From positions 70,186 to 134,185 of IMG/VR virus record IMGVR_UViG_3300049571_000258: a DNA stretch of 64,000 bases, one strand, 5' to 3'. The position numbers were made by a program, and so were the translations under genes. This document shows, piece by piece, positions 13,124-60,373 of the stretch (within the stretch, counting starts at the first letter, position 1; each line of letters starts with the position of its first letter). This stretch comes from a virus. Its lineage: Duplodnaviria > Heunggongvirae > Uroviricota > Caudoviricetes. Below the pieces are notes generated by a model that saw nothing but the letters and a program-made list of their open reading frames with translations, made no database searches and was not told the origin of the DNA.

Positions 13124-13252
13124 ATGCCCGTGAAGATCCTGTGCAGCTGCGGCCACTCGGCCGCGGCGCACGTCTACCACGCCCTGACGGGGATGTTCCC
13201 GTGCAAGCGTTGTCCGTGCCCGGCGTTCCAGCCGACGTCGCCGACGACTTGA
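13124..13252 (+). CDS. small Cys/His-rich zinc-finger-like protein (42 aa)
   Basis: CSCGH...H..H...CKRCPCP; high GC3; abuts the previous stop. Confidence 0.45.
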   Translation: MPVKILCSCGHSAAAHVYHALTGMFPCKRCPCPAFQPTSPTT

Positions 13253-13277
13253 CGTAGCACACGTCATGCGCTTTAAT
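13249..13277 (+). promoter_or_regulatory. promoter: TTGACG, 17 bp spacer containing palindrome gcacacgtcatgcgc, -10 TTTAAT; leaderless ATG 6 nt later
   Basis: Classic -35/-10 spacing; the spacer is one copy of the recurring GCACAC-N3-GTGTGC operator. Confidence 0.55.
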
Positions 13278-13283
13278 GGGTGC

Positions 13284-13388
13284 ATGACAAAGACCACTCC
13301 CATCCCAACCCCTTACCCCGAAATGGCGAAGCTGGAAGCCGCACACAAGGTGCGCATGACCGCGCTCGGCGTGAAGGGGGCCTACTAG
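13284..13388 (+). CDS. small hypothetical protein (34 aa), leaderless
   Basis: ATG 6 nt after the -10 box; GC3 only moderate. Confidence 0.3.
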   Translation: MTKTTPIPTPYPEMAKLEAAHKVRMTALGVKGAY

Positions 13389-13547
13389 TCGGTGCTCTAC
13401 ACGATCCTCCTGATCGTCGTCTTCCTGGCCGCGGTCGCCTGGGGGTGGGGCTGCCAGTGCCCGTACTGCGGCCACTCCAATCGCTGGCCGAAGTGGCTGT
13501 TCCCGGTGTGCCAGCGCTGCCTGCGCGACCGCACGCGCCACTCGTAG
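13389..13547 (+). CDS. small membrane plus zinc-ribbon protein (52 aa)
   Basis: GTG start; TM helix followed by CQCPYCGH...CQRC; strong GC3. Confidence 0.5.
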   Translation, partial: SVLYTILLIVVFLAAVAWGWGCQCPYCGHSNRWPKWLFPVCQRCLRDRTRHS

Positions 13548-13583
13548 TTGCACTCGCCGGAGGGACCCGCTAGTCTCTCCGGC

Positions 13584-13657
13584 GGGCCTGTAGCTCAGCT
13601 GGCGAGAGCGCCGCCCTTGCAAGGCGGAGGTCGGGGGTTCGAAGCCCCCTAGGTCCA
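13584..13657 (+). tRNA. tRNA-Ala: tRNA-Ala (TGC)
   Basis: Acceptor gggcctg/taggtcc (2 GU), anticodon stem ccgcc/ggcgg, loop ctTGCaa, T-arm ggggg-ttcgaag-ccccc. Confidence 0.65.
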
Positions 13658-13900
13658 CCTCACATAGCTGCGGGCCGAAGGGCCATCGGTTCTCTGACAC
13701 CTCCCGGGAGGTGGGACGCGAGTCCACACACCGGGTCTACCCGGGGATTCACGCGAGAGCGCCCCGTTCCGATCCCACCACATGACCGCAGCGCCCTCTT
13801 GGGGACGCGGGCCGAAGGGTCTGTCGGTTACCTGCTATTGGATCAGACGGGGCCTCTGGCCCCTTTCCGACTCCCGCACCACGACCGCGTCTCCTACTTT

Positions 13901-13973
13901 GCGCCGGTAGCTCATCGGGTAGAGCGACAGCCCCCCAAGCTGTAGGCGGTCGGTTCGAGACCGACTCGGCGCT
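13901..13973 (+). tRNA. tRNA-Gly: tRNA, probably Gly (CCC); C at position 33
   Basis: Acceptor gcgccgg/tcggcgc, anticodon stem acagc/gctgt perfect, loop ccCCCaa, T-arm gtcgg-ttcgaga-ccgac. Confidence 0.5.
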
Positions 13974-14042
13974 CCTGTTCGGTGTGGGCCGCTCAACGAT
14001 CCGCACTTGCGTGCGCGGGGAGTACGCGATATCGTCGGAGGC

Positions 14043-14116
14043 GCGCTAGTAGCTCACGCTGGCAGAGCGCCACCTTGCCATGGTGGAGGTAGCCGGATCG
14101 TCGCCGGTCTAGCGCT
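14043..14116 (+). tRNA. tRNA-Gly: tRNA-Gly (GCC) with non-canonical T-loop (atcgtcg)
   Basis: Acceptor gcgctag/ctagcgc perfect, anticodon stem ccacc/ggtgg, loop ttGCCat; T-loop lacks TTC. Confidence 0.55.
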
Positions 14117-14171
14117 TCTGGACGGGACAGGGGAGAGGCACAGGGGTGGTCTTCGGGCCGCCCCTTTGTGT

Positions 14172-14192
14172 GCTCACGTCGTGTGCTACCGT
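14172..14192 (+). promoter_or_regulatory. promoter/operator: gctcacgtcgtgtgc + TACCGT; leaderless ATG at 14201
   Basis: Member of the recurring palindrome plus extended -10 motif. Confidence 0.5.
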
Positions 14193-16732: not shown

Positions 16733-16753
16733 GCACACGTCGTGTGCTACGGT
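16733..16753 (+). promoter_or_regulatory. promoter/operator: gcacacgtcgtgtgc + TACGGT, upstream of the Y-RNA-like element
   Basis: Perfect-half-site palindrome immediately followed by a TAnnnT -10 box. Confidence 0.5.
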
Positions 16754-16968: not shown

Positions 16969-18735
16969 ATGTCGTACCTACACCAGGTCAGCACACGCCG
17001 CACGCCGCAGCGTGAGCGCATCCCGGGGCGCACCGACCAGGTGCAGAACTCCGAGGGCGGCTTCGTCTGGGCGGTCGACAAGTGGACGCGCCTGGAGCGC
17101 TTCCTGATCCTCGGCGCGGAGGGCGGCACCTACTACATCGGCGAGGCCGACCTGACGAAGCAGAACGTCGGCGTGCTCGACGACTGCCTGACGGACGACC
17201 CGGCGCGCACGGTCTCCACGATCGTCGCCGTGTCGGCTGCTGGGCGCAACGCGAAGCAGGAGCCGGTCGTCTTCGCCCTGGCGTACGCCGCCGGGTTCCG
17301 CACCGAGGCCGCTCGTCAGGCGGCGCTGCGCGCGCTGCCTGACGTTGTGCGCACCGGCTCGCACATGGGCCTGTTCCTGTCCTACGTGCAGAACTTCCGC
17401 GGCTGGGGCCGCTCGCTGCGCCGCGCCGTCGGCCAGTGGTACGTCTCGCGCGACCGCATCACGGTCGACGAGGAGACCGGCGAGGCGGTCGTCGCCGAGC
17501 GCGCCGTCGACCGGGTCGCCTTCCAGATGGTCAAGTACCGCTCGCGCTACGGGTTCTCGCAGCGCGACGCCCTGCGCAAGGCGCACCCGGCCAACCGGGT
17601 GTCGTCGCGCAACCCGACGGTCGAGGGCCTGACGGAGGACCACGAGCGGCTGTACAACTGGGTCGTCAACGGTGGGGCCGACGAGCGTCTGCCGCAGGTC
17701 GTGCACGCCTTCGAGGCGGCGCAGGCGTCCGAGTCGCCTGCGCAGACGGCGAAGCTGATCGAGCGCTACGGCAACCTGCTGACGCGCGAGATGCTGCACA
17801 CCGAGCACCTGACCGACCGGGACGTCAACCGCGCCCTGGTCGAGGCAGGCATGCCGATGGGCGCGCTCGTGCGCAACCTGGCCAATCTGACGCGCTACGG
17901 CGTCTTCGAGGACCGCGCCTACGTCAAGCAGGTCGTCGCACAGCTGACCAACCCGGACGCGGTGCGCCGGTCGCGCCTGCACCCGTACGCGGTGCTGACG
18001 GCGCTGTGCACGTACGCGGCGGGCTACTCGATGACCAACCCCGAGCAGCGCTGGAACCCGGTCGCGCAGATCGTGGACGCGCTCGACGCAGCGTTCTACC
18101 TGTCGTTCGGCAACGCCGAGCCGACGGGGAAGCGCATCCGCCTGGCGCTGGACGTGTCCGGCTCGATGGGCCACCCGATCATCACCGGCTACCGCAAGGG
18201 CCGCTACGGCATGGAGGCGGTCCCGTCAGCCGTGTCGTGCGCGGCGGGCGCGGGGGCGATGGCGCTCGTGACGGCGAACATCGAGGACGACTACGACATC
18301 GTCGCGTTCTCGGACGGCCAGACCGGCGGCAGGTACATCGGCGGGTCGTGGGGCTACAACGGGGACGCGTCGGGCGCGGTGCTGGCACCGTGCACGATCT
18401 CGCCGCGCCAGCGTCTCGACGACGTCGTCGGGCAGATGAACCGGCTGAACTTCGGGCGCACCGACTGCGCGCTACCGATCCTGGACGCGGCGCAGCGAGG
18501 CCTGGAGTTCGACGCGTTCGTGGTCTACACCGACAACGAGACGTGGTTCGGCAAGGTCCACCCGACGCAGGCGCTCGCGGAGTACCGCCAGAAGACCGGG
18601 ATCCCGGCGAAGCTGGTCGTCGTGTCGATGGAGGCCAACCAGTTCTCGATCGCTCACCCCGACGACCCGGGCATGCTCGACGTCGTCGGGTTCGACCCGG
18701 CTGCCCCGGCGGTGATCGCGGACTTCCTGCGATGA
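16969..18735 (+). CDS. rsr: Ro60 ortholog Rsr (TROVE domain plus C-terminal vWA/MIDAS domain)
   Basis: SEGGFVWAVDKWTRLERFLILGAEGGTYYI and GRNAKQEPVVFALAY match the Ro60 N-terminal signature (human [29 protein letters not shown] / GRTTKQEPMLFALAI); C-terminal LALDVSGSM...T...D MIDAS motif. Confidence 0.9.
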   Translation: MSYLHQVSTRRTPQRERIPGRTDQVQNSEGGFVWAVDKWTRLERFLILGAEGGTYYIGEADLTKQNVGVLDDCLTDDPARTVSTIVAVSAAGRNAKQEPVVFALAYAAGFRTEAARQAALRALPDVVRTGSHMGLFLSYVQNFRGWGRSLRRAVGQWYVSRDRITVDEETGEAVVAERAVDRVAFQMVKYRSRYGFSQRDALRKAHPANRVSSRNPTVEGLTEDHERLYNWVVNGGADERLPQVVHAFEAAQASESPAQTAKLIERYGNLLTREMLHTEHLTDRDVNRALVEAGMPMGALVRNLANLTRYGVFEDRAYVKQVVAQLTNPDAVRRSRLHPYAVLTALCTYAAGYSMTNPEQRWNPVAQIVDALDAAFYLSFGNAEPTGKRIRLALDVSGSMGHPIITGYRKGRYGMEAVPSAVSCAAGAGAMALVTANIEDDYDIVAFSDGQTGGRYIGGSWGYNGDASGAVLAPCTISPRQRLDDVVGQMNRLNFGRTDCALPILDAAQRGLEFDAFVVYTDNETWFGKVHPTQALAEYRQKTGIPAKLVVVSMEANQFSIAHPDDPGMLDVVGFDPAAPAVIADFLR

Positions 18736-19102: not shown

Positions 19103-19653
19103 CCCCTGAGGTGGTCATCTGGACCGACGGCTCGTGCCCGAAGCCGGACGGTCCCGGCGGGTGGGCGGCGATCCTTCAGCGGCGCAGCGCCGACGGTGAG
19201 GTGTTGGCCGAGCGCGAGATCACCGGCGGCTCGTCGCGCACGACGAACAACCGTGCCGAGTTGATGGCGGTGATCGTCGGCCTGGAGGCGCTGAAGCGCC
19301 CATGTCGCGTGAGGATCGTCATCGACTCGCAGTACGTGATGCACGGCTTCACGCGCGGCTGGGTCCAGCAGTGGAAGCGCAACGGCTGGCGCACGAAGGG
19401 TGAGGCGAACCTGCTGACGCACGCAGGGGACCCGACGAACGTGGTGAAGAACCGCGACCTGTGGGAGCGCCTGGACGCGCTCGTGGCTGAGCATCAGGTC
19501 GAGTGGCATCACGTGAAGGGGCACCTGAAGCCGTCGCATGCCGACTGGACGGAGTGGCACGCCAACAACATCCGCTGCGACGAGCTAGCCGGTGCCGAGA
19601 CGAAGCGCATCAAGGAGGCGCTGACCTTGGTCGAAGCACAAGCTGTGTGCTAG
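19099..19653 (+). CDS. rnhA: ribonuclease HI
   Basis: IWTDGSC...GGWAA...TNNRAELMAV...HHVKGH...N..DELA, the canonical RNase H1 catalytic motifs; GTG in a GTGA overlap. Confidence 0.85.
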   Translation: MTPEVVIWTDGSCPKPDGPGGWAAILQRRSADGEVLAEREITGGSSRTTNNRAELMAVIVGLEALKRPCRVRIVIDSQYVMHGFTRGWVQQWKRNGWRTKGEANLLTHAGDPTNVVKNRDLWERLDALVAEHQVEWHHVKGHLKPSHADWTEWHANNIRCDELAGAETKRIKEALTLVEAQAVC

Positions 19654-19656
19654 GGT
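19636..19656 (+). promoter_or_regulatory. promoter/operator: gcacaagctgtgtgc + TAGGGT
   Basis: Palindrome plus -10 motif overlapping the end of rnhA; SD ggaggtagg and ATG 19684 downstream. Confidence 0.45.
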
Positions 19657-19683
19657 CTGGCGTCCAACGACCGGAGGTAGGAG

Positions 19684-24339: not shown

Positions 24340-24701
24340 TGCCGCATCCCGTAGTCACGACCTGCGTGAACGGCCATGTGATCGCCGAGGTCGGGCGCTA
24401 TCGCTCCGATCGGGACAGGTATGGCCCCTGCAAGGCGTGCAATCGGGAAGCTGTCCGCAAGCATCGCCGTCGTCGCGCCGACTACGTGCGCGCCCTGAAG
24501 CTAGAGCGGGGCTGCATGCGGTGTGGTTACGCGCGGTCTGCTGCGGCGCTCGATTTTCACCACCGCGATCCGTCGCTCAAGAAGTTCTCGATCAGCCAGG
24601 CGATCACGCGCCCGTGGGACGCGGTGCTCTCGGAGATCGAAAAGTGCGATGTCATTTGCCGTAACTGCCACGCCGAACTCCACGAAGGGGAGGATCGATG
24701 A
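24339..24701 (+). CDS. HNH-type zinc-finger nuclease-like protein
   Basis: C..GH...C..C...H..RC.YC...LDFHH.D...K....CRNCHAELH. Confidence 0.55.
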   Translation: MPHPVVTTCVNGHVIAEVGRYRSDRDRYGPCKACNREAVRKHRRRRADYVRALKLERGCMRCGYARSAAALDFHHRDPSLKKFSISQAITRPWDAVLSEIEKCDVICRNCHAELHEGEDR

Positions 24702-46602: not shown

Positions 46603-46609
46603 TCTCGCG

Positions 46610-46902: not shown

Positions 46903-46909
46903 CTGACTT

Positions 46910-47116: not shown

Positions 47117-47119
47117 CCT

Positions 47120-47140: not shown

Positions 47141-47180
47141 GTCCGGCGTGTGTAGTGCCAACGACCGGAGAGGTAGGTAG

Positions 47181-47522: not shown

Positions 47523-47535
47523 GAGGTAGGTACGC

Positions 47536-48465: not shown

Positions 48466-48479
48466 TTCAATCAAGCTGG

Positions 48480-48507
48480 GGGGCCGAGGACTGGGAGGCT
48501 CGGCCCC
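48480..48507. terminator. 9-bp GC hairpin after the ParB-like gene
   Basis: ggggccgag-gactgggagg-ctcggcccc. Confidence 0.4.
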
Positions 48508-48536
48508 TCACCCATTCATCGACTAGGGGTAGGACG

Positions 48537-48926: not shown

Positions 48927-49210
48927 ACGGGATCGTCGCGGTCGCAGCACTTGCGTCGCTGGGCGTCCTGATCTTCATCGCGACGAAGCTGACGGTCCGC
49001 CCGGCCCCTGAGCATGAGCCGGAGGCGCGCTTGCGGGTGCGCCGGGAGCCGGAACTGTTCGTCGAGGGCGATCTGGAGGCGATCGAGCACCTGCGCCTGA
49101 TCGTGCATACCGCCGACCAGATGCGCGCCGAGTTGGGGATGGTGCATCGCTCGTCGTTCGCGGCGCGCGCGTACGACCGGATCCGTGGCGAGCGGGAGAC
49201 GTCGACATGA
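48923..49210 (+). CDS. membrane-anchored hypothetical protein (95 aa)
   Basis: GTGA overlap; N-terminal TM helix. Confidence 0.45.
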   Translation: MNGIVAVAALASLGVLIFIATKLTVRPAPEHEPEARLRVRREPELFVEGDLEAIEHLRLIVHTADQMRAELGMVHRSSFAARAYDRIRGERETST

Positions 49211-49416
49211 CCGGCTACGAGCGCCAGTGGGACTGCCTTGTGTGCGGCCGGTCGCAGCGATCCATCGACCGCCCGAAGGTCGAGGTCTGCGATACATGCG
49301 TCGGGGCCGAGAACATCCTTCTGAACCAGTACCCGTCGCTGACCGACGCGCTGCGCAGGGTCGCCACACGCGCCTATGAGCGTGGATTCGAGCACGGCCG
49401 GAGGGTCCAGCGATGA
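49207..49416 (+). CDS. zinc-ribbon protein (69 aa)
   Basis: ORF track; CLVCG...CDTC. Confidence 0.5.
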   Translation: MTGYERQWDCLVCGRSQRSIDRPKVEVCDTCVGAENILLNQYPSLTDALRRVATRAYERGFEHGRRVQR

Positions 49417-49967
49417 AGATGGCCGAGCGCATCGAGCAGCTGAAGCGCAGCCGCGCGATCGCCGCCCAAATGAAGCCGAAGGGCGCTGCGGCGGCCAGGC
49501 GCCGAGCGCAGGCCGAGCGACGCGCGGAGCGCGAGGCGGAGATCGTCGCGGCGCGCGCCCGACTGACTCCCGAGGATCGGCTGTTGGCGGCGACGTTCCG
49601 CTGCCCGGACGACCCCATGGGGAAGCGGCGCGTCGCGCACGAGTTGCTGGCCGGGCCGGGCGGTCGCCGACGTCGCCAGTGGGAGATCGCGGCGATCATG
49701 GGCGTGCCGGTCGGCAGCGTCTCGTTCTACATGAGGGACCCCGACGGCACCTATCACGACGAGTTGCGGGCGCGACGCGTCGACCAGGAGCCTCATCCAG
49801 ACATGCCGTTCGCCGAATGGGTGAAGCGGCAGCGGCGCACGCACGGCCTGTCGCAGGCGGCGTTCGATCGCAAGCTGGGCTGGGAGTCGGGCACGACGAA
49901 GCGCCTAGAGGCACGTAAGCGGTGGGACTTCGCGAAGGCTGACGAGGTCCGCCGGGCGCTGGCCTAG
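49413..49967 (+). CDS. putative DNA-binding regulator with two HTH-like segments
   Basis: QWEIAAIMGVPVGSVSFYM (sigma-region-4-like HTH) and THGLSQAAFDRKLGWESGTTKRLE (XRE-like HTH). Confidence 0.5.
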   Translation: MKMAERIEQLKRSRAIAAQMKPKGAAAARRRAQAERRAEREAEIVAARARLTPEDRLLAATFRCPDDPMGKRRVAHELLAGPGGRRRRQWEIAAIMGVPVGSVSFYMRDPDGTYHDELRARRVDQEPHPDMPFAEWVKRQRRTHGLSQAAFDRKLGWESGTTKRLEARKRWDFAKADEVRRALA

Positions 49968-50020
49968 CACGGGACAAGCTCGGCTGCGGAGGCGACGGGC
50001 ATCGCCGGTACCCTTCGCGC

Positions 50021-53000
50021 ATGCCTGGGGCCTCCATTCGCCTACGCCACGACGCGGGTGCCACCGGCACGGGGCTTGTCGTCGCCGAAGGCCTCCTCCT
50101 CACGCTCACCGACCCGCGCTCGAAGAAGCAGCACATCACTCGCGCGGCCGACACGGCACGCCAGCTGCTGAGTCTCGACGAAGCAGACACGACGAAGGTC
50201 GCGCGCGCCCTGGCGGAGCACATCGAGAAGATCCGCCCGGCGGTCCAGGAGGCGGCCACGATGCCGTCGATCTCGGTCAAGAAGGGCGGGGGCCAGGTCG
50301 GCGCCGCAACCGGCGCACAGGGCGCGCAGGTGCGCATGGAGACCAAGTCGAAGGCCAAGCCGAAGACGCGCGGTGGCGTGGCGGGCGAGGTCGGCGCGAA
50401 GGGCGCGCCAGCGGCCAGCAACCCCAACTTCGAGAAGCTGCACCCACGCGATCGCACCGGCCGGTGGGTCAAGGCGGGCGACGGCTACGATCAGCCCAAC
50501 CCGACGGTCTCGCAGCTTCAGCGTCGCCTGGCGCAGCTGGGCTACGGTCCCGGCGCGCCGGACGGCAAGTTCGGCCCGTTGACACAGCAGGCGCTCGCCA
50601 AGTTCCAGGCCGACTACGGCCTCCAGGGCGACGGTTCGCACGTCGACCCCGCTACGCTCCAGGTGCTCCAGAACCCTCCGGCGCAGAAGCTGCGCCAGAT
50701 CCAGGCCGAGCAGCAGGCGCTGGCCAACGTGCCGGACGCCAACGGCAAGGTGGCTGGCGCCACCGGCGGATCTACTGGCGGTACGGGTAGCAGCACTAGC
50801 GCGGGTGCCAGCGGGTCGGCCACGACGACGCTGGATACCACCGATCCCGAGGCGGTCAAGAAGTTCCAGCAGGCGCACGGCCTGAAGCCGGACGGCGTCG
50901 TCGGCCCCAACACCGAGGCACTGATGAAGGGGCTTGGCGTCCACCCCAAGGGCGACTACGTCAACCCGGACGGCACGGTGACGAGCGTCGATCACGCGGC
51001 CGAGGAGAGGGACAATGCGAAGAAGGACTCCTCCAAGTCGTCGTCCTCCTCGTCGGGCACTGGCAGCGCCAGCGGCAGCGCGAGCGGGGCGGCGTCGAAG
51101 GGCGCGAACTCCGAGACGCTGGCGCCGGGTGACGGGCTGAAGGAGCCGAGCGCCGACGTCAAGGCGCTTCAGCAGGTGCTCGACGCGCTGGGCTATGACC
51201 TGGGTGAGAGCGGCATCGACGGCCGCTACGGCAGCGATACCGAGAAGGCGATCCGCAAGCTCCAGAAGCGCTACGGCCTGAAGGTCGACGGTGTTGCCGG
51301 ACCGCGCACGATGCGCCTGCTCAAGCGGCTGGGCGAGCAGGCCAAGAAGAAGGCCAAGGACGACGACATCAAGTCGGGTGACGAGGTCACCGAGGCGCAG
51401 ATCGTCGCGGCGGTCGAGAAGCGCAAGCTGGCCGAGGCCGCGGGCGACGTGGACGCGTTCATTGCGGCGCGCGCCGCGGAGGTTCACCTGCGCGAGAACT
51501 TCATCGAGCGCCTGCATCCACGTGACCGACTGGGCAAGTTCGCGGACGTGCCGGGTGGCTCGAAGGGTTCCTCGTTCAAGTACGGCCCCGGCGACCGGGT
51601 CGTCATCGAGCCTGCGACGAGGCACTACGGCGACCGGGTGCACCCTGGTCGGGTCCACGATCGCTACGTCGACAAGTTCGGCGGGCGCTGGTACACGGTC
51701 GCGACCGGCAACGGCAACGAGGATGTGCTGGAGGATCAGCTGCGCAGGCCTTCCGAGCGCGAGGGTGTGAAGATGGACCCGGGCACGGGGTCGAAGCCGA
51801 AGAAGTCGCGCATCATCCTCACCGACGAGGATCGCGCGTTCCCCGAGACGGCGATGTGGCCCGAGGCGATCGCCGAGCGTCGCCGGGCGCAGGGCAAGCG
51901 GAGGTTCGGCATGAGGTCTGTTCTGGATCGGCTCACCGAGGCGGCAGAGATCCGTGAGTCCGCGACGCCGGGCACGCCCGAGCACATCGAGGCGCGTGCC
52001 CGTGAGGTCGAACTGGCTCGCCAGGTCATGGAGGAGGGCGTGCTGAACGCCGCGGCGCGCAAGGCGTCGGCGACGGTCGTGCGCCAGAAGGGCGGCAAGA
52101 CCGAGTACAAGTTCCCGATCCCCGACAAGGCGCACGCGAAGGCGGCGCTGGCCTACCTGAACTCCAGCGACCTGACGCCCGAGGAGAAGGCGAAGGTGCG
52201 CGCGCGGGCGATGGCGGTGCTGGCCGAGGCGCGGCGCGCCGAGCGCGAGGCGGAGATGGTCGCGGCGCTCGACGAGGCCGAGGTGCTGATGATCGCCGAG
52301 GCGGTGGACTCCCTGCGCAAGGCGTCCACGCACAAGCACGGGCTGGAGTCCAAGAAGGGGCCGAACGACAACTGGATCGAGCGCTCCAGCGCCGACGGGC
52401 GTGGCCAGCTGCCCGCCTACATTCAGCACATCGCACTGGCGCTCGTGCGCAAGCGCGGGATGCCGAAGTCACGCGCGATCGCCATCGCGATCGGCACGGT
52501 CAAGCGCTGGGCGCGCGGTGGCGGCGACGTGGACGCCAACACGCGTGCGGCGGCGGCCAAGGCGGTCGCCGAGTGGGAGGCGCTGAAGGCCAAGAACAAG
52601 GCCAAGAAGGTCACCGAGGCGTGGGACTCCGACTTGATCGACACGGTGTTCGAGTGCGGCCTGATGGAGGCCGACACGAAGGCCGACTACGACGACATGA
52701 CCTGCACGGCGCACGGGCGCAAGAAGTGCAAGTCCTGCCTGATGGAGGCGGTGTTCGAGGATCGCCTGCACCCGCGCAACCGCTTCGGTCGGTTCATCCA
52801 CAGCTTCGGCGGGCGCCGCAACGGCGGCGGTGCTATGGATGGGTTCGTGCACAACGGCAAGCGGGAGCGGATCGACAGCCGCATCGGCGACGGCGGGTCC
52901 TTCGAGGCGCGTACGCGGCGCACGCAGCGCTACGCCGAGCACATGGCTCGCGTGCCCGAGACGCCGCAGGAGCGGGGCCAGCGCGAGGCGGATGAGCGCT

Positions 53001-53503
53001 ATCAGGCCGCGCTGCTGGGCAAGCGCGACCCCGGCACAGCGTCGCCGCAGGCGGTGCAGCGAGTCGCCTACAGCGCCTTCACCGGCGAACCAGCCGAACG
53101 TCGAGCGTCCTTCGATGCGATGGACCTGATGACCAACGATCAGCTGAACACGCTCGACGACACGAACCTCATCACGATCCACACGGCCACCCTGCCCGGC
53201 GGGGAGCGCGGCGCCTATTCGTCGCTGCACAGCCGCGTGGCGCAGATCCTCAAGGGTCGCGACAGCGATCAGGCCTCGCGCTACATGCGTGGGCTGAACA
53301 TCTTCGAGTCGTTGACCGACGCGGCGCTGGCGTTGCGCGAGTCCTGGACGCCGACGTTCGAGGCGCGCCCGTACGTGGACGCGCTGGCCGAGGGCGTGAC
53401 CGACGCTGTGATCGTGCGCGCGCTGCTGAGCGCGATGGGGCAGGCGAGCGGCCCCGACGTCGCGAAGGTCCGCCGCACGCTGCGCGCCCACCTGGAGGGC
53501 TAG
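50021..53503 (+). CDS. very large (1160 aa) protein with three peptidoglycan-binding (PG_binding_1-like) repeats and three HPRDR peptide motifs
   Basis: PG-binding repeats LQRRLAQLGYGPGAPDGKFGPLTQQALAKFQ, VKKFQQAHGLKPDGVVGPNTEALMKGLG and LQKRYGLKVDGVAGPRTMRLLKRLG; motifs FEKLHPRDRTGRW, FIERLHPRDRLGKF and FEDRLHPRNRFGRF; Ser/Gly-rich linkers. N-terminal start uncertain. Confidence 0.65.
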   Translation: MPGASIRLRHDAGATGTGLVVAEGLLLTLTDPRSKKQHITRAADTARQLLSLDEADTTKVARALAEHIEKIRPAVQEAATMPSISVKKGGGQVGAATGAQGAQVRMETKSKAKPKTRGGVAGEVGAKGAPAASNPNFEKLHPRDRTGRWVKAGDGYDQPNPTVSQLQRRLAQLGYGPGAPDGKFGPLTQQALAKFQADYGLQGDGSHVDPATLQVLQNPPAQKLRQIQAEQQALANVPDANGKVAGATGGSTGGTGSSTSAGASGSATTTLDTTDPEAVKKFQQAHGLKPDGVVGPNTEALMKGLGVHPKGDYVNPDGTVTSVDHAAEERDNAKKDSSKSSSSSSGTGSASGSASGAASKGANSETLAPGDGLKEPSADVKALQQVLDALGYDLGESGIDGRYGSDTEKAIRKLQKRYGLKVDGVAGPRTMRLLKRLGEQAKKKAKDDDIKSGDEVTEAQIVAAVEKRKLAEAAGDVDAFIAARAAEVHLRENFIERLHPRDRLGKFADVPGGSKGSSFKYGPGDRVVIEPATRHYGDRVHPGRVHDRYVDKFGGRWYTVATGNGNEDVLEDQLRRPSEREGVKMDPGTGSKPKKSRIILTDEDRAFPETAMWPEAIAERRRAQGKRRFGMRSVLDRLTEAAEIRESATPGTPEHIEARAREVELARQVMEEGVLNAAARKASATVVRQKGGKTEYKFPIPDKAHAKAALAYLNSSDLTPEEKAKVRARAMAVLAEARRAEREAEMVAALDEAEVLMIAEAVDSLRKASTHKHGLESKKGPNDNWIERSSADGRGQLPAYIQHIALALVRKRGMPKSRAIAIAIGTVKRWARGGGDVDANTRAAAAKAVAEWEALKAKNKAKKVTEAWDSDLIDTVFECGLMEADTKADYDDMTCTAHGRKKCKSCLMEAVFEDRLHPRNRFGRFIHSFGGRRNGGGAMDGFVHNGKRERIDSRIGDGGSFEARTRRTQRYAEHMARVPETPQERGQREADERYQAALLGKRDPGTASPQAVQRVAYSAFTGEPAERRASFDAMDLMTNDQLNTLDDTNLITIHTATLPGGERGAYSSLHSRVAQILKGRDSDQASRYMRGLNIFESLTDAALALRESWTPTFEARPYVDALAEGVTDAVIVRALLSAMGQASGPDVAKVRRTLRAHLEG

Positions 53504-55999
53504 GTGTCGCTGGAGGGGATGGCAGCCGGGCGCCGCATGGCCGCGGCGCTGATCTTGCAGGAGGCCAAGGGAGCCATCCCCGAGGGCTACTTTGTCACGC
53601 GCCTGGTGGACGCTGGCGCCACCGAGGAGCAGGCGCAGGAGATCGCCGACAAGTTCATCGAGATCGGCAAGGTCATCCCCGACAAGAAGTTCAACAAGGT
53701 GGCCAAGAAGATCACCGAGAAGGACCGCGACGCGCAGCACTTCATCAACATCGAGGAGGGGGTCATCGCCGACTTCCTCGCGCCCGGCGCGCTGGCTGTC
53801 CACGCCAACATGAAGGCCTACAAGGAGTGGGAGCCAGACAAGCACCCTCGCGATCGAGAGGGCAAGTTCCTCAAGGTGCTCAAGTCGCTCGACGTCGGCC
53901 AGGCCGAGACCCATGAGGGCGTGACGATCACGCGCAACTCGCGCAAGGAGTTCCACCTCAGCGGCGGCGTCGACCGCGGTGAGCGGACGATCGTCGGGCA
54001 CCGGGCCGCCGCGCGCGACGCGGCCGAGCGCGCGGAAGTGGCGGCCAAGGCGAAGGCCAGCGGCGTCAAGATGGATCCTGGCACCTTCCCGAAGGAGGAG
54101 GGGAAGTCGACGCACTTCTCGCGCGCAAAGGCGATGGCCTACACCGTGGGCGTCCCCGGGTTCGTCGCCTGGGATCACGACGAGGTCGATACGTGGTTCC
54201 CCTTCAACGGCTACGGCGACACACACGGCGTGCTGTGGGCGCCGGTGACCGACAAGATCGAGCACGCGTCTGTCGACCTGGCCACGACGCTGATCTCGCA
54301 GCTGCACCTGATCCCTCAGGTGGCCGAGTCGCTGCTGCATCTCATCGCCGCGCGCGAGGACCGGCGTGCGGCGCAGCTGGCCAACGACCCTGACGCGCTG
54401 GTACGTGCACACGCACTAGAGACCGCCCTGATCTCGCATCTGCGCGCCGCCGGACTGCACGACGACACGCTGCGCGAGGCGGTCAGCTACGCGGAGGCAC
54501 TGCACCCGCGTGACCGCAACGGCAAGTGGATCCGCAAGCTAACCGGCGGGAACTCCAAGGGTCTGCGCGCGCTGCCTCAGGGCAAGCGCGTCCAGGTGCC
54601 CGGCACGCACGTCAACGTGACGCGCGTCGGGCGCGACGAGTACGACATCGCCGACTCGCGGTCGGGGCGCGGCAAGCGCCGGATCCAGGGCCACGAGCAC
54701 GCGGCCAACGAGATCCACGAGCGTGCCCGCACGAGCGACGTCGCCAAGCGCGACCCGGGCATCGACAGCGACGCCTACGAGAAGGGCTTCACCCCGAAGG
54801 AGACACACGAGCGCACGCGCTGGTTCAGGCGCAAGGAGCGCAACGAGGCGGCCGAGAGGTTCGAGGAGGTGCTGCCTGGCCACGTCGCGGACGCCATCGG
54901 CTACAGCGCCCTGAAGGTGTCCAGCGAGACACCCGGCCTCAACAAGCTGGGCAAGCCTGCCTACAACGCCTACGAGTGGATCATCAACGGTGGCAAGATC
55001 CCCGACGAGCACGCCACGGCTGCGACTGGGCACGCGTCGCAGCACATCACGTCGGCGGCCGACCACCTAGCCGCCGCGGCGCCGCAACTTGATGATCGGG
55101 TGGCGCACGCCGCGATCAGTGTCGCTGACACCCTCGTGAACTTCATCTCCAGTGGTGGTGGCGACGTCGCACAGGCGCTGATCCACCTGATTGCGTCGCG
55201 CTGGGATGGGGCGCGGGCCGCACGCATCGAGGCCGAGCGCACCGGCGACACGACGGCATGGGCGCGCGCTCGCGCGATCGAGGAGGCGGCGCTGGCGCAG
55301 CTGCTGGAGGTCAAGTACGACCCGCGCAAGCACCCGCGCGACCGGAACGGCAAGTGGATCGACACGCCGGACATCACGCACGCGATCAAGGCGATGATCT
55401 CCGGCGAGTTCCACGGCGACGACCCGAGGCCCCAGACGCCGACGAAGCTGGGCGTCACGCCGTACTACAAGACGAACGACCCCAACTACCCGCAGCGCAC
55501 GTACGCGTCGGCCAAGGCGCTGTTCAACGAGCCGGACTGGCGCAAGACGTTCCGCGAGTTCGAGCGTGACGTCCACCGGCTGGCCAAGGAGCACAACGTC
55601 GAGGTCGTGCACAGCGAGCGCGGCGTGGGCGTGTTCGAGGGCGAGTTCGAGCCGAGCTACAGCATCGACGTCACGGGCGACCCGAAGGACATCTCGGCCT
55701 ACAACACGGCGCTGGGCAAGAAGTGGAAGCAGGACGCCGTGGTGTCCTTCAAGCGCGACAAGCGAGGCAAGGACACCGAGGTGCACGTGCCGGTGAAGAA
55801 TCCGGAGGCGTTCCTGGCGGCGCTGCGCAAGCGCTCCAAGGGCGAGGTCGGCGCGACCTTCGAGGACGGGATGGCGCGCGTGTTCGTGTACGCCTCCGAC
55901 GCGGCGGGCATCAAGGCGGTGGCCAAGGCGGCGGAGGACGTCGGCGCGAAGGCGCGCGCGTTCCGCGGCACCGGTGAGTACATCGAGACGAAGGCCTAG
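53504..55999 (+). CDS. large (831 aa) hypothetical protein with three HPRDR peptide motifs
   Basis: GTG after TAG; DKHPRDREGKF, EALHPRDRNGKW and RKHPRDRNGKW; otherwise no recognisable domain. Confidence 0.6.
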   Translation: MSLEGMAAGRRMAAALILQEAKGAIPEGYFVTRLVDAGATEEQAQEIADKFIEIGKVIPDKKFNKVAKKITEKDRDAQHFINIEEGVIADFLAPGALAVHANMKAYKEWEPDKHPRDREGKFLKVLKSLDVGQAETHEGVTITRNSRKEFHLSGGVDRGERTIVGHRAAARDAAERAEVAAKAKASGVKMDPGTFPKEEGKSTHFSRAKAMAYTVGVPGFVAWDHDEVDTWFPFNGYGDTHGVLWAPVTDKIEHASVDLATTLISQLHLIPQVAESLLHLIAAREDRRAAQLANDPDALVRAHALETALISHLRAAGLHDDTLREAVSYAEALHPRDRNGKWIRKLTGGNSKGLRALPQGKRVQVPGTHVNVTRVGRDEYDIADSRSGRGKRRIQGHEHAANEIHERARTSDVAKRDPGIDSDAYEKGFTPKETHERTRWFRRKERNEAAERFEEVLPGHVADAIGYSALKVSSETPGLNKLGKPAYNAYEWIINGGKIPDEHATAATGHASQHITSAADHLAAAAPQLDDRVAHAAISVADTLVNFISSGGGDVAQALIHLIASRWDGARAARIEAERTGDTTAWARARAIEEAALAQLLEVKYDPRKHPRDRNGKWIDTPDITHAIKAMISGEFHGDDPRPQTPTKLGVTPYYKTNDPNYPQRTYASAKALFNEPDWRKTFREFERDVHRLAKEHNVEVVHSERGVGVFEGEFEPSYSIDVTGDPKDISAYNTALGKKWKQDAVVSFKRDKRGKDTEVHVPVKNPEAFLAALRKRSKGEVGATFEDGMARVFVYASDAAGIKAVAKAAEDVGAKARAFRGTGEYIETKA

Positions 56000-56014
56000 T
56001 AGACTGGCCCGGTC

Positions 56015-56179
56015 ATGACCTTCTCGCGCGACCCCAAGGACTTCGAGGACGGCTTCCTGGAGAAGCTGTCGCCGTCGCAGCGTGCTGCGTGGGAAGCGGG
56101 CATCCCGTTCGCGACCGACGACGAGTACACCGACGAGGTCACGACTCTGGTCTTCACACCGAAGCCGCAGAAGAAGTGA
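56015..56179 (+). CDS. small hypothetical protein (54 aa)
   Basis: ATG...TGA; below the ORF-track cutoff; good GC3. Confidence 0.35.
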   Translation: MTFSRDPKDFEDGFLEKLSPSQRAAWEAGIPFATDDEYTDEVTTLVFTPKPQKK

Positions 56180-56239
56180 AGCCCCCCGGCTCCGTCGTCA
56201 CGCTCAGGTACGGTCCTACCCCAGGGGATCAACGGTCAG

Positions 56240-56914
56240 ATGCAGAGCACAGTTGAACTAGAGTTCTGTTCGCGTACTGATCCGCGTTACGTGGAGATGC
56301 GCGATCGACACTACATTCCCAATCGAGGCTCCCAGGGACAGCAGCTGCACTTCATCGTATGGGATGGTCCTATCCGTGCGGGCATCATCTCGGCTGGCTC
56401 TGGCGTCTACGCAGTCAAGAGCCGGGACGAGTTCTTTGGCATTCCCAGCGACAAGCGCGAGCGCGAAACGCTGTGGCTGCCAGCGATCGTGAACAACACG
56501 GTGTTTCGGCTAGAGAAGACTCGTCCCAACCTCGGGACTCAAGTGCTGTCACGCTGGCAGCGCGTGACTCGAAAGCTCTGGCCGCTGCTGTACAACGTGG
56601 ATGTGATCGGGTTCGAGACGTTCATCGTCGAGAACCCTACGCGTCGAGGAGCGCTGTACAAGGCGGCGAACTGGACCCATGTCGGCACAACTGTGGGGCG
56701 CACCAAGTCGCACTCGACCGCAGGAGGCATGAAGGACAAGCGCGATCATCTTGACACGGAGCCAAAGATGGTCTACTGCGCTGTGGCAGGCAAGAAGTTG
56801 CGCGTTCCTTCGCGGGAGTACGTTTCTAGCTGGAGGCGGTCTACTCCCGAGGAGCGTGCGGCAGACAAGCGGCTACGCGATCTGCGTAGCGAACTCAACG
56901 GTAGGAGGTTCTGA
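56240..56914 (+). CDS. hypothetical protein on a low-GC (~55%) island
   Basis: ORF track 224 aa; base composition clearly differs from its flanks; no confident motif. Confidence 0.55.
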   Translation: MQSTVELEFCSRTDPRYVEMRDRHYIPNRGSQGQQLHFIVWDGPIRAGIISAGSGVYAVKSRDEFFGIPSDKRERETLWLPAIVNNTVFRLEKTRPNLGTQVLSRWQRVTRKLWPLLYNVDVIGFETFIVENPTRRGALYKAANWTHVGTTVGRTKSHSTAGGMKDKRDHLDTEPKMVYCAVAGKKLRVPSREYVSSWRRSTPEERAADKRLRDLRSELNGRRF

Positions 56915-56960: not shown

Positions 56961-56989
56961 TTGACGCAGCACACGACGTTAGCTATACT
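56961..56989 (+). promoter_or_regulatory. promoter TTGACG, 17 bp spacer with gcacacgacgttagc, TATACT
   Basis: Canonical -35/-10; the spacer carries the left half-site GCACAC of the recurring operator. Confidence 0.5.
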
Positions 56990-57047
56990 TCTCTCTGTGC
57001 AAGGGACCCGACACCGGTCCCCAGACCAAAGAGAGGTAGAGGTAGGA

Positions 57048-57966: not shown

Positions 57967-58227
57967 ATGCCTGACCCGGCGATGGCCAAGCACTACCTGC
58001 CCGGCCCGACGCGGTCCCTGATGGCCGTCGAGTCGTCGGCCTACCTGATGAACCGCGTCAAGTGGCTCAGCACGTGGATCGGCGACGAGCGACCGGCGCC
58101 GGAGCCGCCTGAGAGCCTGTCGCGCGACATCATCACGATGCTCGACGACATCGCGCAGAACATCTGCGAGCACTCGCCGACGCTGGCCCAGGAGGAAGCG
58201 CTGCTGCGTGCGGCGCGCCCCTCGTGA
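57967..58227 (+). CDS. hypothetical protein (86 aa)
   Basis: SD caggaggagcacc plus ATG; same frame as ORF 57781..58227, whose upstream part has poor GC3. Confidence 0.45.
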   Translation: MPDPAMAKHYLPGPTRSLMAVESSAYLMNRVKWLSTWIGDERPAPEPPESLSRDIITMLDDIAQNICEHSPTLAQEEALLRAARPS

Positions 58228-58442
58228 GTACATCCGACGGCGGCGAGAGGATGCCCAGCATGCACGGCAGTGAGCGCCCGATGGATCGGCTCGACGCTGA
58301 GGCCGCCGACGCGGTCACCGAGGGCCTGGACATGGACGACGTCGACATGTGGTCGGGCATGGCCATGACGATCGAGGACTACCTGAAGATGCGCGCCGAC
58401 CTGGCGGGCATGACCGTGGAGGAGTACCTAGATGCCTCGTGA
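58224..58442 (+). CDS. hypothetical acidic protein (72 aa)
   Basis: GTGA overlap; ORF track. Confidence 0.45.
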   Translation: MSTSDGGERMPSMHGSERPMDRLDAEAADAVTEGLDMDDVDMWSGMAMTIEDYLKMRADLAGMTVEEYLDAS

Positions 58443-58896
58443 GGCGTTGCCCTGCATTGTGTGCGGGCGCGAGCTACGCAACATCTTCGACGACGCGACC
58501 AACCAGCCGGGTGACGGCACCACGTTCGAGACGCACGGCCACTACGGCTCGACGGCGTTCGACCCGATGGACGGCACCTACCTGGAGATCAACGTCTGCG
58601 ACCCATGCCTGACCGCCGCGCGCGAGAGGGGCGTGGTGCTGCACGGCATGGACCGCAAGGTGGTCGTCTGTGAGGGGGTCGGCGTGGGCTGGACGAAGGC
58701 GCTGCGACCCCTGTTGCCGTGGACGGGCGACGAGCCGGAGCAGGACTACCAGCGCCCCGGCGAGAACGTCCTGGAGGTCGACCTAGACGACGTCGGCAAC
58801 CATACGTTGTATCCCGAGATCGAGTGGCATCACGGCGCGGTCATCTGGGCGCAAGACGAGCGCAAGGCGCGCGCCGGAGAGGATGAGGGCGAATGA
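58432..58896 (+). CDS. zinc-ribbon hypothetical protein (154 aa)
   Basis: ORF track; CIVCG...CDPC. Confidence 0.5.
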   Translation: MPREALPCIVCGRELRNIFDDATNQPGDGTTFETHGHYGSTAFDPMDGTYLEINVCDPCLTAARERGVVLHGMDRKVVVCEGVGVGWTKALRPLLPWTGDEPEQDYQRPGENVLEVDLDDVGNHTLYPEIEWHHGAVIWAQDERKARAGEDEGE

Positions 58897-59140
58897 GGAC
58901 GGCTGGCGCGACGCCAGTCCTGCGGCGGAACCCGAGGAGGACGATGTGCCCGAGGACATGAAGATGATCGCGATGCACCCGGCGCTCGTGCCAGCGTTCG
59001 AGGAGTGGCTGGCGTCGCGTCACCTGCACTTGTTTCGGATCCCTGGCGGGTTCGAGGCCGATCCCGTGTTCGCCGTCGGCATCTCCGACAGCCACCCTGT
59101 CCTGCGTCTCGCTGACGCGCTCGACCCGGACATCGACTGA
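58883..59140 (+). CDS. hypothetical protein (85 aa)
   Basis: ORF track. Confidence 0.45.
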   Translation: MRANEDGWRDASPAAEPEEDDVPEDMKMIAMHPALVPAFEEWLASRHLHLFRIPGGFEADPVFAVGISDSHPVLRLADALDPDID

Positions 59141-59210
59141 TGCTGAAGCTGTACTGGGCGATCCGGTGGTGGTGGTGGGACCGGCGAGAGGCGATCGAGG
59201 AGGCGATGCG

Positions 59211-59513
59211 GTGAGCCTGCACTACGAGATGCGCGAGCCGCGCCCAAGGCCCCAGGAGCACGTCCTGACCGGCGCGACATGCGACGCCTGCGGTGGCGAC
59301 GCGTACTACCCGGCGCACCGAAGCCCGGACGCCACCCTGACCTACGTGCGGGACGACGGCAAGTCCAACATGGACATCTGGCAGCTAGACCTGTGCACGA
59401 CTTGCAAAGACGCCGTGATGCAGCTGCTGGCTTCGATCGCCAAGCGCGAGGGACACGACATGCCGATGACGCGCAGGGAGACCTTCGCGGCAACGCTGGA
59501 GATCGACGGATGA
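59211..59513 (+). CDS. hypothetical protein with CxxC...CxxC (100 aa)
   Basis: GTG start in frame with ORF 59166..59513. Confidence 0.45.
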   Translation: MSLHYEMREPRPRPQEHVLTGATCDACGGDAYYPAHRSPDATLTYVRDDGKSNMDIWQLDLCTTCKDAVMQLLASIAKREGHDMPMTRRETFAATLEIDG

Positions 59514-59646
59514 CCGCCTGGGAGATCGTGCCGCGCGACAAGGGCAAGGTCCAGGTCATCATGGAGGCCACCACCTGGATCCTGGACGTCGACTGGTACC
59601 TCGTGACGGTGCGCGAGAGGTGCGGGCGCTGTGGGGCGTCGCGATG
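59510..59646 (+). CDS. small hypothetical protein (45 aa)
   Basis: ATGA overlap; ends CGRCG. Confidence 0.35.
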
Positions 59647-59886
59647 AGGTCCACCTACCGCGGCTACGACATCAACGTGGAGCGCGCGCGGTGCCTGGGT
59701 GGCTGGGATCTCATCTACTACCAGATCGTGCGCAAGTCCGACGGGTGGTTCGCGCTCGACGCGTTCACGGACTCCGACGAGACGGTGCGCGAGGTCATGC
59801 GCTCGATGAAGATCCGCATCGACAACGAGCACAACGAGGAGGACCCATGGGGCGAGAGGGCGGAAGCCGAGGAGTGGGGTCGGTGA
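59644..59886 (+). CDS. hypothetical protein (80 aa)
   Basis: ATGA overlap; in frame with ORF 59620..59886. Confidence 0.45.
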   Translation: MRSTYRGYDINVERARCLGGWDLIYYQIVRKSDGWFALDAFTDSDETVREVMRSMKIRIDNEHNEEDPWGERAEAEEWGR

Positions 59887-59890
59887 AGCG

Positions 59891-60115
59891 ATGAGCGACC
59901 GGACGATCCATGCCACGACGCCAGACGGCGGCATGATCGTGCGCTACGAGAGGGCGGGCAAGTGGTACGTCGAGTGGCCCGCCGACCGGATGGTCCCGCG
60001 GCGCGCGATCTCGCTGAACGAGGCGGTGCGCCTGGCGACGCAGCGGGGCGCGTACGTGTATCTCGGCCAGCCCGGCGGGAGGGCGTTCGACGCCAAGGTC
60101 AGGGCGGCAGCGTGA
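59891..60115 (+). CDS. hypothetical protein (74 aa)
   Basis: ORF track. Confidence 0.45.
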   Translation: MSDRTIHATTPDGGMIVRYERAGKWYVEWPADRMVPRRAISLNEAVRLATQRGAYVYLGQPGGRAFDAKVRAAA

Positions 60116-60351
60116 GCGCGCTAGACGATGCGCGTCGCCTGATGGCGAGACGCGCACAACGCAAGGTGGCGATCCGGCGACTGGAGGAGGTCGCCTCGAT
60201 CGTGCACACGCTTCACGACAACCCGGTGTCCAAGGCCACCTTCGGCACAGAGCTAGACGAGGATGTGCGCGAGCGTCTGCGTGCGGTGGAGGATGAGGTG
60301 CGCGCGATCGCTCTCACGCTCGACAGCTACAACGAGGGCGAGGCCGTTTGA
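60112..60351 (+). CDS. hypothetical protein (79 aa)
   Basis: GTGA overlap; helical. Confidence 0.45.
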   Translation: MSALDDARRLMARRAQRKVAIRRLEEVASIVHTLHDNPVSKATFGTELDEDVRERLRAVEDEVRAIALTLDSYNEGEAV

Positions 60352-60373
60352 AGCACACGACGTGTGCTATCAT
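60348..60373 (+). promoter_or_regulatory. promoter/operator: TTGAAG ... gcacacgacgtgtgc + TATCAT
   Basis: Perfect half-sites GCACAC/GTGTGC; SD gagaggtag plus ATG 60433 downstream. Confidence 0.5.

Follow-up and report, generated by a model that had tools for sequence, protein, structure and literature searches.

Within a 64,000-nucleotide stretch of a Caudoviricetes genome (IMG/VR virus record IMGVR_UViG_3300049571_000258, positions 70,186–134,185; hereafter the window), which has a GC content of 66–70% over its 64 kb and which we treat as part of a large uncultivated phage of a high-GC host, we identified a compact module in which a palindrome is joined directly to a -10 hexamer. The module reads (TA)GCnCAC-GWC-GTGTGC + TAnnnT, forms a unit of 21–27 bp and is present in 14 plus-strand copies. 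With moderate confidence, and judging from sequence, we interpret it as a promoter of the host housekeeping sigma factor that has a built-in operator for a phage-encoded dimeric regulator, which would repress by occlusion.

The core palindrome GCACAC-N3-GTGTGC is found eight times in the window with at most one mismatch, compared to 0.40 expected from shuffled sequences, and 18 times with at most two mismatches, compared to 6.3 expected. The right half together with the -10 (CRTGYGCTANNNT) has nine copies where 0.29 are expected, one of which lies on the minus strand at 42871–42883. A position weight matrix derived from the sites scored the 14 plus-strand copies at 29–43 bits and everything else at 26.5 bits or less; these lower matches are reverse readings of the same palindromes, with the sole exception of 30343 on the minus strand, at 14.5 bits. 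In most copies the symmetry reaches 19 bp (TA-GCnCAC-GWC-GTGTGC-TA), so that the palindrome itself takes in the two leading bases of the -10. A preliminary description of this stretch had listed 14 such sites, all of which are present and enriched once five coordinates that were off by one are corrected (to 28222, 32903, 38064, 42877 and 44207). Its expectation that the sites would be concentrated between genes was borne out as well, as 13 of the 14 are wholly non-coding in a window of which 12.6% is non-coding (P = 2.4e-11), and all 14 face the next gene or tRNA. The copies, with the open reading frames (ORFs) and other genes next to them and, where relevant, the G+C content at third codon positions (GC3), are as follows.

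13249–13277, plus strand: module 1, with a -35 (TTGACG, 13249–13254), a 17-bp spacer holding GCACACGTCATGCGC (13257–13271) and a weak -10, TTTAAT; downstream are a 34-codon ORF at 13284 and then tRNA-Ala and tRNA-Gly genes.
14172–14192, plus strand: module 2, GCTCACGTCGTGTGC + TACCGT, ahead of ATG 14201 of an 87-aa ORF with a GC3 of 0.90.
16733–16753, plus strand: module 3, the perfect palindrome GCACACGTCGTGTGC + TACGGT, 8 nt past tRNA-Cys; the genes behind it are tRNA-Asn (16798) and then Ro60/TROVE (16969–18735).
19636–19656, plus strand: module 4, GCACAAGCTGTGTGC + TAGGGT, 27 nt upstream of ATG 19684; this is the only site that is not fully intergenic, and it covers the final 18 nt of the RNase H gene.
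27493–27513, plus strand: module 5, GGTAACGATTTGTGC + TAGCGT, 32 nt upstream of TTG 27546; its left half is degenerate and the right half-site alone is kept, in agreement with its earlier description as a weaker copy.
28222–28242, plus strand: module 6, GCGCACGTCGTGCGC + TAGCAT, ahead of ATG 28249 of a 74-aa ORF, with a G+C-rich hairpin just upstream.
32903–32923, plus strand: module 7, GCACATGACATGTGC + TACAGT, within a 21-bp perfect palindrome; its operon includes an SPFH gene and RecA.
38064–38084, plus strand: module 8, GCGCATGTCGTGTGC + TATAGT; its operon includes DnaG primase and a zeta-toxin-like gene.
42871–42897, bidirectional: module 9, AGAGTA-GCGCATGACGTGTGT-TAGGAT, with a plus-facing -10 (TAGGAT) and a minus-facing -10 (TACTCT).
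44207–44227, plus strand: module 10, GCGCACGACATGTGC + TAGAGT.
46440–46460, plus strand: module 11, GCTCACAACGTGTGC + TATAGT, 2 nt past tRNA-Tyr and ahead of tRNA-Met, tRNA-Pro and tRNA-Arg.
47120–47140, plus strand: module 12, GCTCACGATGTGTGC + TACGGT, at the head of a long operon (47181–56914).
56961–56989, plus strand: module 13, with a -35 (TTGACG), a 17-bp spacer holding GCACACGACGTTAGC and a -10, TATACT.
60353–60373, plus strand: module 14, the perfect palindrome GCACACGACGTGTGC + TATCAT.

Module 9, whose palindrome starts at 42877, separates the sole minus-strand gene of the window from a plus-strand gene and bears a -10 hexamer on both flanks. A further full module lies approximately 550 bp upstream of the window start (L069:5674).

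Relatives were retrieved by exact-pattern scans of IMG/VR and the JGI metagenome collection, which returned 45 high-GC (67–71%) loci on contigs of 4–127 kb, several of them 105–127 kb long. A matrix scan of these loci located 112 further unique sites, and a separate count allowing at most one mismatch gave 122 unique core palindromes. TAnnnT adjoins 108 of these 122, where about one would be expected, and is present on both sides of five; 72 are fully intergenic, in loci of which 16.6% is non-coding. The portal proteins of the relatives are 52–55% identical to that of the window, and the module is nearly identical. When hidden Markov models (HMMs) of 64 protein families of the relatives were compared with the window, the proteins in common were the portal, terminase, small terminase (TerS), a zeta-toxin-like protein, large proteins bearing the LHPR repeat described below and one 75-aa protein; no regulator was among them.

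Outside this group the module is missing. The perfect 19-mer had no match in 185,579 bacterial and archaeal species (one genome each); a relaxed 21-mer had five isolated matches, a chance level, in unrelated metagenome-assembled genomes (MAGs) of 40–68% GC; 50,697 phage genomes held nothing beyond chance matches inside coding regions; and the exact motif strings retrieved only unrelated primers from the literature. On the basis of the two genome-collection scans (zero matches and five at chance level), explanations by a host regulon or a prophage were rejected. Since the module is nearly identical in the relatives and missing elsewhere, we conclude that it belongs to one uncultivated phage clade, which, to judge from the sample identifiers, apparently comes from soil. 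The same distribution bears on who binds the palindrome: a motif missing from the genomes of bacteria and of cultured phages is more likely to be bound by a phage protein than by a host protein. One may nonetheless postulate a host transcription factor as the binder, with the phages making use of its operator, for instance as a means of sensing the physiological state of the host. We retain this scenario because the motif, near-identical in phages that have very few proteins in common, is more widely conserved than any phage regulator we found, none of which is kept across all motif-bearing phages. We nevertheless consider it quite unlikely given the empty 19-mer scan and the five scattered 21-mer matches, with the caveat that host operators could be more degenerate and that the host itself is perhaps unsequenced.

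The sequence around the -10 has the features of a bacterial promoter. Across 126 sites overall, TG occupies -15/-14 in 108; T-15 and G-14 are near-invariant, and variation is tolerated at -25, the mirror position in the left arm (G 67, A 37). As only one arm is fixed at this position, the right arm appears to be under a second constraint, that of an extended -10 TGn. Of the 126 sites, 17 have TTG at a spacing of exactly 17 bp from the -10, where the background is 0.78 per position (P = 7e-18); this is a sharp positional signal such as a sigma-70-family holoenzyme imposes. This -35 TTG is a minority feature, seen in approximately 16% of sites, and we found no association between -35 and TG that would indicate a trade-off. 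In the relatives, the next start codon facing the same way most often follows the -10 by 30–49 nt (67 of 102 cases, a sharp peak) and in five cases by 4–10 nt. Taken together, the module looks like a promoter in every way that is visible in sequence: it is intergenic and co-oriented, combines TAnnnT with TGn and with TTG at 17 bp, and stands at set distances from start codons. Several statements of the preliminary description can be refined for the window. TAnnnT directly follows the palindrome at 13 of the 14 sites, the exception being 13257, where TTTAAT does not have the A at -11, and the right half-site doubles as an extended -10 TGn at the 11 of 14 sites with TG at -15/-14 and not at the remainder. 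The proposed -35 elements hold at 13249 and 56961 (TTGACG, 17-bp spacer) and are weak at 60348 (TTTGAA, 15-bp spacer); that the palindrome fills the spacer proved correct.

A canonical promoter that has no palindrome is also present in the window.

45750–45778, plus strand: canonical promoter without a palindrome, TTGACA-17-TACACT.

Behind it lie a structured non-coding stretch that contains a tRNA-like gene (promoter and stretch together occupy 45750–46036) and then an array of tRNA-Leu, tRNA-Ser, tRNA-Phe and tRNA-Tyr. The tRNA-like gene (45934–46020) has a long arm, was missed by ARAGORN and matches the tRNA-Sec model at 41 bits, under the gathering score of 47. The promoter at 45750 indicates that RNA polymerase does not need the dyad, and the phage appears also to use ordinary promoters of the host type. 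Together with two site-free stretches (660–13,000 and 48,000–56,900), it makes the earlier term "genome-wide" too strong.

These features also bear on a proposal that had been offered as an alternative in the preliminary description, namely that the module is recognized by a phage-specific sigma factor. In a broader form, the module would be the promoter of a phage-encoded sigma factor or phage RNA polymerase, including hairpin promoters like those of phage N4, which have a stem of 5–7 bp and a 3-nt loop. A long conserved sequence does resemble the promoters of phage polymerases, and arms of 6–8 bp around a 3-nt centre match the N4 hairpin geometry. In N4, however, transcription starts approximately 11 nt from the dyad centre, against approximately 20 nt predicted here. 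Neither a sigma-70-family domain nor an RNA polymerase domain was detected when the 105 proteins of the window and the 6 kb upstream were searched, which amounts to about half of the roughly 134-kb genome, and TAnnnT, TGn and a TTG at 17-bp spacing are hallmarks of the host housekeeping sigma factor. We consequently regard a phage-specific polymerase or sigma factor as very improbable.

Whether the palindrome acts as a protein operator or as a nucleic-acid hairpin can be assessed from how its arms vary. At positions -21/-19, the pairs are G-C in 63 sites, A-C in 18, G-T in 45 and A-T in none (Fisher P = 3e-4); at -25/-15, A-C mismatches exceed G-C when -15 is C; and the central base has no strong orientation (A 73, T 38). 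As the arms never change in a compensatory manner, they behave as a dyad in which each half seeks the consensus of a protein rather than as a hairpin, and the palindrome is probably a protein operator, in line with the dimeric-protein operator proposed earlier. The inverted repeat could otherwise be a terminator, an RNA-processing site or a cruciform that abuts the next promoter by chance, and the placement of sites at operon junctions, some of them directly past tRNA genes, would suit such a role, as would the position of one palindrome (site 117, below) within a long hairpin. Double changes that preserve pairing are avoided, however (no A-T pairs against 63 single changes), the sites have no U-tract, a generic terminator scan picked up none of them, and separate, stronger hairpins already stand upstream of sites 14172 and 28222. 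A hairpin or terminator function was rejected on the missing covariation and the missing U-tract, and in all its forms we consider this explanation highly improbable.

Palindromes that have no -10 offer a further view of the operator.

117–131, unstranded: palindrome without a -10, GCACAAGACGTGTGC, inside a longer hairpin, downstream of the operon of cc2 (a winged-helix-turn-helix, wHTH, protein taken up below) and upstream of the portal gene.
13341–13355, unstranded: palindrome without a -10, GCACACAAGGTGCGC, 84 bp downstream of module 1.

The closest relative has a palindrome without a -10 at the syntenic place (L070:9438), likewise after a wHTH gene and before the portal gene, and this recurrence fits binding that is independent of promoter function. 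Site 117 may be an operator-only or roadblock site, an uncertain assignment, and the palindrome at 13341 could be an auxiliary operator or a chance match.

Under the promoter–operator model that we favour, each module would be read by the host housekeeping sigma factor, a member of the sigma-70 family and most likely the actinobacterial sigma-A, through an extended -10 of the form T-15 G-14 n T-12 A-11 n n n T-7, and in a minority of cases through an additional -35 TTGnnn exactly 17 bp upstream. The palindrome of 15–19 bp, (TA)GCRCAC-GWC-GTGYGC(TA) at -29 to -11, would fill the spacer, its right arm giving the TG as well as the TA with which the -10 opens. A phage-encoded dimeric protein would bind this dyad and, because the dyad spans -29 to -11, a region contacted by sigma, the bound dimer should exclude RNA polymerase from the extended -10/-10. 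It is from this geometry that we infer repression, and the transcription starts, the binding and the identity of the binder are likewise predictions. One factor could in this manner shut or hold off about 15 promoters in the 64-kb window, and dozens per genome clade-wide, with a predicted regulon that includes tRNA arrays, Ro60, nucleotide-metabolism genes, RecA, primase and many small genes. Candidate regulator genes sit behind modules, which would give autoregulation.

Three candidates for the regulator stand out.

42464–42862, minus strand: coiled-coil wHTH candidate, 132 aa, the sole minus-strand gene of the window.
L069:5724–6074: cc2, 116 aa, with the same coiled-coil plus wHTH architecture, 150–500 bp upstream of the window start.
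31280–31624, plus strand: XRE/Cro-C1-type HTH protein (HTH_3, E = 4e-17) with a C-terminal zipper-like helix.

The first of these, which is divergent from module 9 (42877) in a window where 104 of 105 genes lie on the plus strand by codon-bias gene calls, is a candidate regulator that would be autoregulated from that module. Its protein has a 48-residue N-terminal helix followed by a three-helix winged-HTH region; in an AlphaFold single-sequence model the N-terminal helix alone was confident. The 3′ ends of this gene and of the plus-strand gene at 42261–42488 overlap convergently by 25 nt (42464–42488), so that their transcripts collide. cc2 lies directly behind the module at L069:5674 and has a syntenic homologue in the closest relative (E = 1e-15), a protein in which its predicted recognition-helix segment, EITKxTGLNSGTVxHxLxVL, is kept except at four positions. 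It has sub-threshold matches to MarR, IclR and HTH_24, and is a distant paralogue of the 42464–42862 protein (hhalign E = 6e-5). We consider cc2 and the XRE protein to be equally good or better candidates for the binder than the 42464–42862 protein, which is an uncertain choice because it has no detectable homologue and the operator is kept across far more divergent phages.

Several observations weigh against the favoured model. No homologue of the 42464–42862 protein was recovered from 1.84 billion representative proteins by word-indexed search and full HMMER, which returned the protein itself, coiled-coil noise and weak generic wHTH matches, nor did a scan of viral contigs reveal one; at the equivalent junction of one relative (L035) there is no room for the gene, and we therefore read it as an insertion in the phage of the window. 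Protein searches with cc2 recovered no homologues, and by alignment against viral contigs it was found in only one other contig, L034. A back-translated pattern of its recognition helix matched L034 and one unrelated contig of 50% GC, and neither alignment nor helix-pattern scans detected it in the larger relatives. For the XRE protein, the loci of the relatives contain no homologue, and in the DNA that was fetched no regulator is kept across all motif-bearing contigs. The gene calls, which use codon bias, are heuristic. The host is probably an actinobacterium, to judge from Ro60 homologues in actinophages and the promoter and leaderless style; RecA does not discriminate between lineages (405 bits for M. 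tuberculosis, 400 bits for E. coli). Finally, the register between dyad and -10 is absolutely fixed, a trait met more often in activator or specificity elements than in repressor operators, although this may follow trivially because the operator arm contains TGnTA.

It is because of this invariant register, rigid in 108 of 122 sites, that we retain a scenario in which the sign of regulation is reversed. The palindrome would then be a positive specificity element: from a position at about -20/-30, a phage factor would bring host RNA polymerase to these promoters or redirect it to them, and so switch the class on, in the manner of the T4 MotA/AsiA middle promoters or of a MerR-type binder in the spacer. 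That most sites are without a -35 (TTG in about 16%) and that conservation is higher across the dyad than at the inner positions of the -10 would both accord with such an element. Set against this, the dyad covers -17 to -11, which sigma regions 3.0 and 2.4 contact, and from the geometry of promoter complexes co-occupancy would be sterically unlikely; all sites with a -35 have a spacer of 17 bp, compared to 19–20 bp in MerR-type promoters; the palindrome-free promoter at 45750 stands alongside; and palindromes without a -10 exist. An extended -10 without a -35 is, moreover, sufficient in actinobacteria (PMC3898074). Weighing these points, we judge activation through the palindrome to be unlikely. 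A further possibility, which we regard as rather unlikely, is that the dyad is the recognition element of an undescribed family of phage coiled-coil plus winged-helix regulators that sets a clade-specific transcription programme by switching dozens of fused promoter–operators, possibly as an activating or specificity factor and not just as a plain repressor, and that acts as a stoperator-like roadblock at the promoter-less copies (117 and L070:9438). Such a family would have arisen independently as an analogue of the Cluster A system of mycobacteriophages, with a symmetric site doubling as an extended -10.

Some modules stand so close to a start codon that leaderless transcripts would result. 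The five start codons that had been placed 5–8 nt past a -10 (13284, 14201, 28249, 42904 and, on the minus strand, 42862) have measured gaps of 6, 8, 6, 6 and 8 nt, respectively. ATG 28249 and GTG 42904 each follow the -10 by 6 nt, and ATG 14201 and GTG 42862 (minus strand) by 8 nt; their ORFs are of 74–142 codons, and the three on the plus strand have a GC3 of 0.90–0.94. The case of 13284 is doubtful because its ORF of 34 codons lies behind a poor -10 (TTTAAT). It is therefore credible that three or four modules, and not all five, yield leaderless mRNAs with the start codon at the predicted transcription start. Most module-driven transcripts of the relatives begin at their predicted +1 with a 5′ stem-loop (gtaggTGCGGcc...ggCCGCa; e.g., L013:5486–5520, L029 and L032:7186–7220), which is kept after the -10 in the larger relatives and was not found in the window. 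A ribosome-binding context that goes beyond the Shine-Dalgarno core is also kept 5–10 nt before start codons, as GAGGTAG in the window (19670–19683, 27532–27545, 44283–44296, 47167–47180, 57034–57047 and 60419–60432) and as c(c)cgaccGAGGAG in the relatives; it recalls the start-associated sequences of Cluster K phages.

Regulators with dispersed operators are well known, among them P1 C1 with more than 14 operators, KorA and KorB of RK2, whose operators overlap -10 and -35 elements, and LexA with its SOS boxes. The module resembles these systems in that an operator overlaps core promoter elements at many promoters and the regulator gene is itself operator-controlled (here, the candidates). It differs in that their operators vary in position with respect to the -10 and -35, whereas here the register is invariant and one arm is the extended -10, and probably also in the protein families involved. 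A closer likeness in overall layout is offered by the Cluster O mycobacteriophages (the Corndog group), which have more than 30 copies per genome of a 17-bp palindrome, TGTTCGG-N3-CCGAACA, whose binder is not known, together with 8–9 predicted SigA-like promoters, some leaderless and divergent (PMC4351075). Both genomes are of actinophage style, and both cases involve tens of copies of a short inverted repeat centred on 3 bp, mostly in or near intergenic regions, and SigA-like promoters of which some are predicted to be leaderless and divergent. The sequences are different, however, and the Cluster O repeats are separate from promoters and often intragenic, whereas here the repeat is fused to the -10 as its spacer.

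The repressor of Cluster A phages such as L5 and Bxb1 acts at an operator and at stoperators, 20–30 or more sites in short intergenic regions; the stoperators are asymmetric, 13–14 bp long and monomer-bound, they block elongation in an orientation-dependent manner, and one site overlaps the early promoter (PMC9283540, PMC6550527). Many dispersed sites for one regulator (here predicted) and promoter-less sites as possible roadblocks (117 and L070:9438) are shared features, whereas a symmetric dyad inside promoters, with a central base that has no strong orientation, is unlike a stoperator. No homologue of an L5-type repressor turned up in domain scans, with no direct comparison made. SigA promoters of M. 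tuberculosis consist of TANNNT with no general -35, are strongest when they have TGN, and serve 22–26% leaderless genes (PMC3898074). The module has the same TAnnnT, mostly missing -35, TGn and start codons at the predicted transcription start; the host promoters have no conserved spacer, and here a spacer dyad of 15–19 bp is present in every copy. The design is known in principle, and its fused, clade-wide version has not been described before. What distinguishes it is that an operator arm doubles as the extended -10, that the register never varies and that the unit is the standard promoter of a whole clade.

If confirmed, the module would amount to a concise regulatory code for the large (105–134 kb) soil phages of one uncultivated clade, in which an element of about 21 bp marks essentially all early-type transcription units, so that operon maps and the regulon could be read from metagenomes. 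It would be a clean natural case of an operator arm doubling as an extended -10, and might supply strong and tightly switchable promoter and regulator parts for high-GC (actinobacterial) hosts. As the element is nearly identical despite core proteins of about 50% identity, it could also serve as a marker for members of the clade and in the search for the host.

Apart from the module, the window encodes 20 tRNA genes in three arrays, a 1398-aa polyvalent protein, DnaG primase and a zeta-toxin-like protein, together with RecA, RNase H and nucleotide-metabolism enzymes. Two genes serve as landmarks.

660–2729: portal gene.
16969–18735, plus strand: Ro60/TROVE gene with a vWA domain, directly behind tRNA-Asn and under the module at 16733.

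The window sequence has matches in a JGI metagenome contig of about 134 kb and in Logan assemblies of SRR35933080. Searches with DNA and protein found no close cultured relative and returned only Ro60 and remote portal matches; Ro60 is 42–45% identical to proteins of Gordonia, Mycobacterium and Streptomyces phages. Rfam identified tRNAs only in the window, with no Y-RNA-like RNA near Ro60 at the gathering threshold. The tRNA-Met gene (46610–46685) is 94–95% identical over 63 nt to tRNA-Met of the Caulobacter phages CcrSC and CcrBL9, which is the sole near-DNA match of 40000–48000 to any cultured phage. A cluster of nucleotide-pool enzymes at 24698–25483, 26372–26899 and neighbouring positions comprises a DUF4406 plus dATP/dGTP diphosphohydrolase N-terminal domain, dCMP deaminase, MazG and an isochorismatase-like protein. 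Such a set suggests that nucleotides or DNA may be modified; a PurZ-like gene was not seen in the window.

Several protein families and sequence features deserve brief mention. Seven window proteins match DUF6197 (best E = 3e-21), a family without an assigned function, and form a large paralogous expansion. An 86-aa protein (36266–36526) includes a Peptidase_S24-like fragment (GRSM motif) and lacks a DNA-binding domain, and the ORF at 27546–28175 has a proline-rich stretch that derives from a 9/12-nt periodic CCGCC(N) repeat at 27655–27861. A coding motif of about 20 aa, F.ERLHPRDR.GRF(I/V)DKP (the LHPR motif), is repeated at 3410, 6064, 7051, 8280, 9335, 40618, 50420, 51494, 52748, 54502 and 55330; its carriers are the 1398-aa polyvalent protein, three tandem paralogues, the zeta-toxin-like protein, a 1160-aa PG-binding protein and an 831-aa protein, and it is found in the relatives too (family 1). 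The motif may be a common targeting or processing signal of proteins that are packaged in the virion or ejected. The three tandem paralogues (412, 351 and 355 aa; 6940–10294), which had no Pfam match, have in common an HExxH-like block, MHE(L/M)GHA, in addition to the LHPR motif. Upstream of the window start lie a TerS-like gene (L069:1856–2383) and a gene for a large terminase of 845 aa (L069:2613–5150), the latter with a match to an intein-splicing domain.

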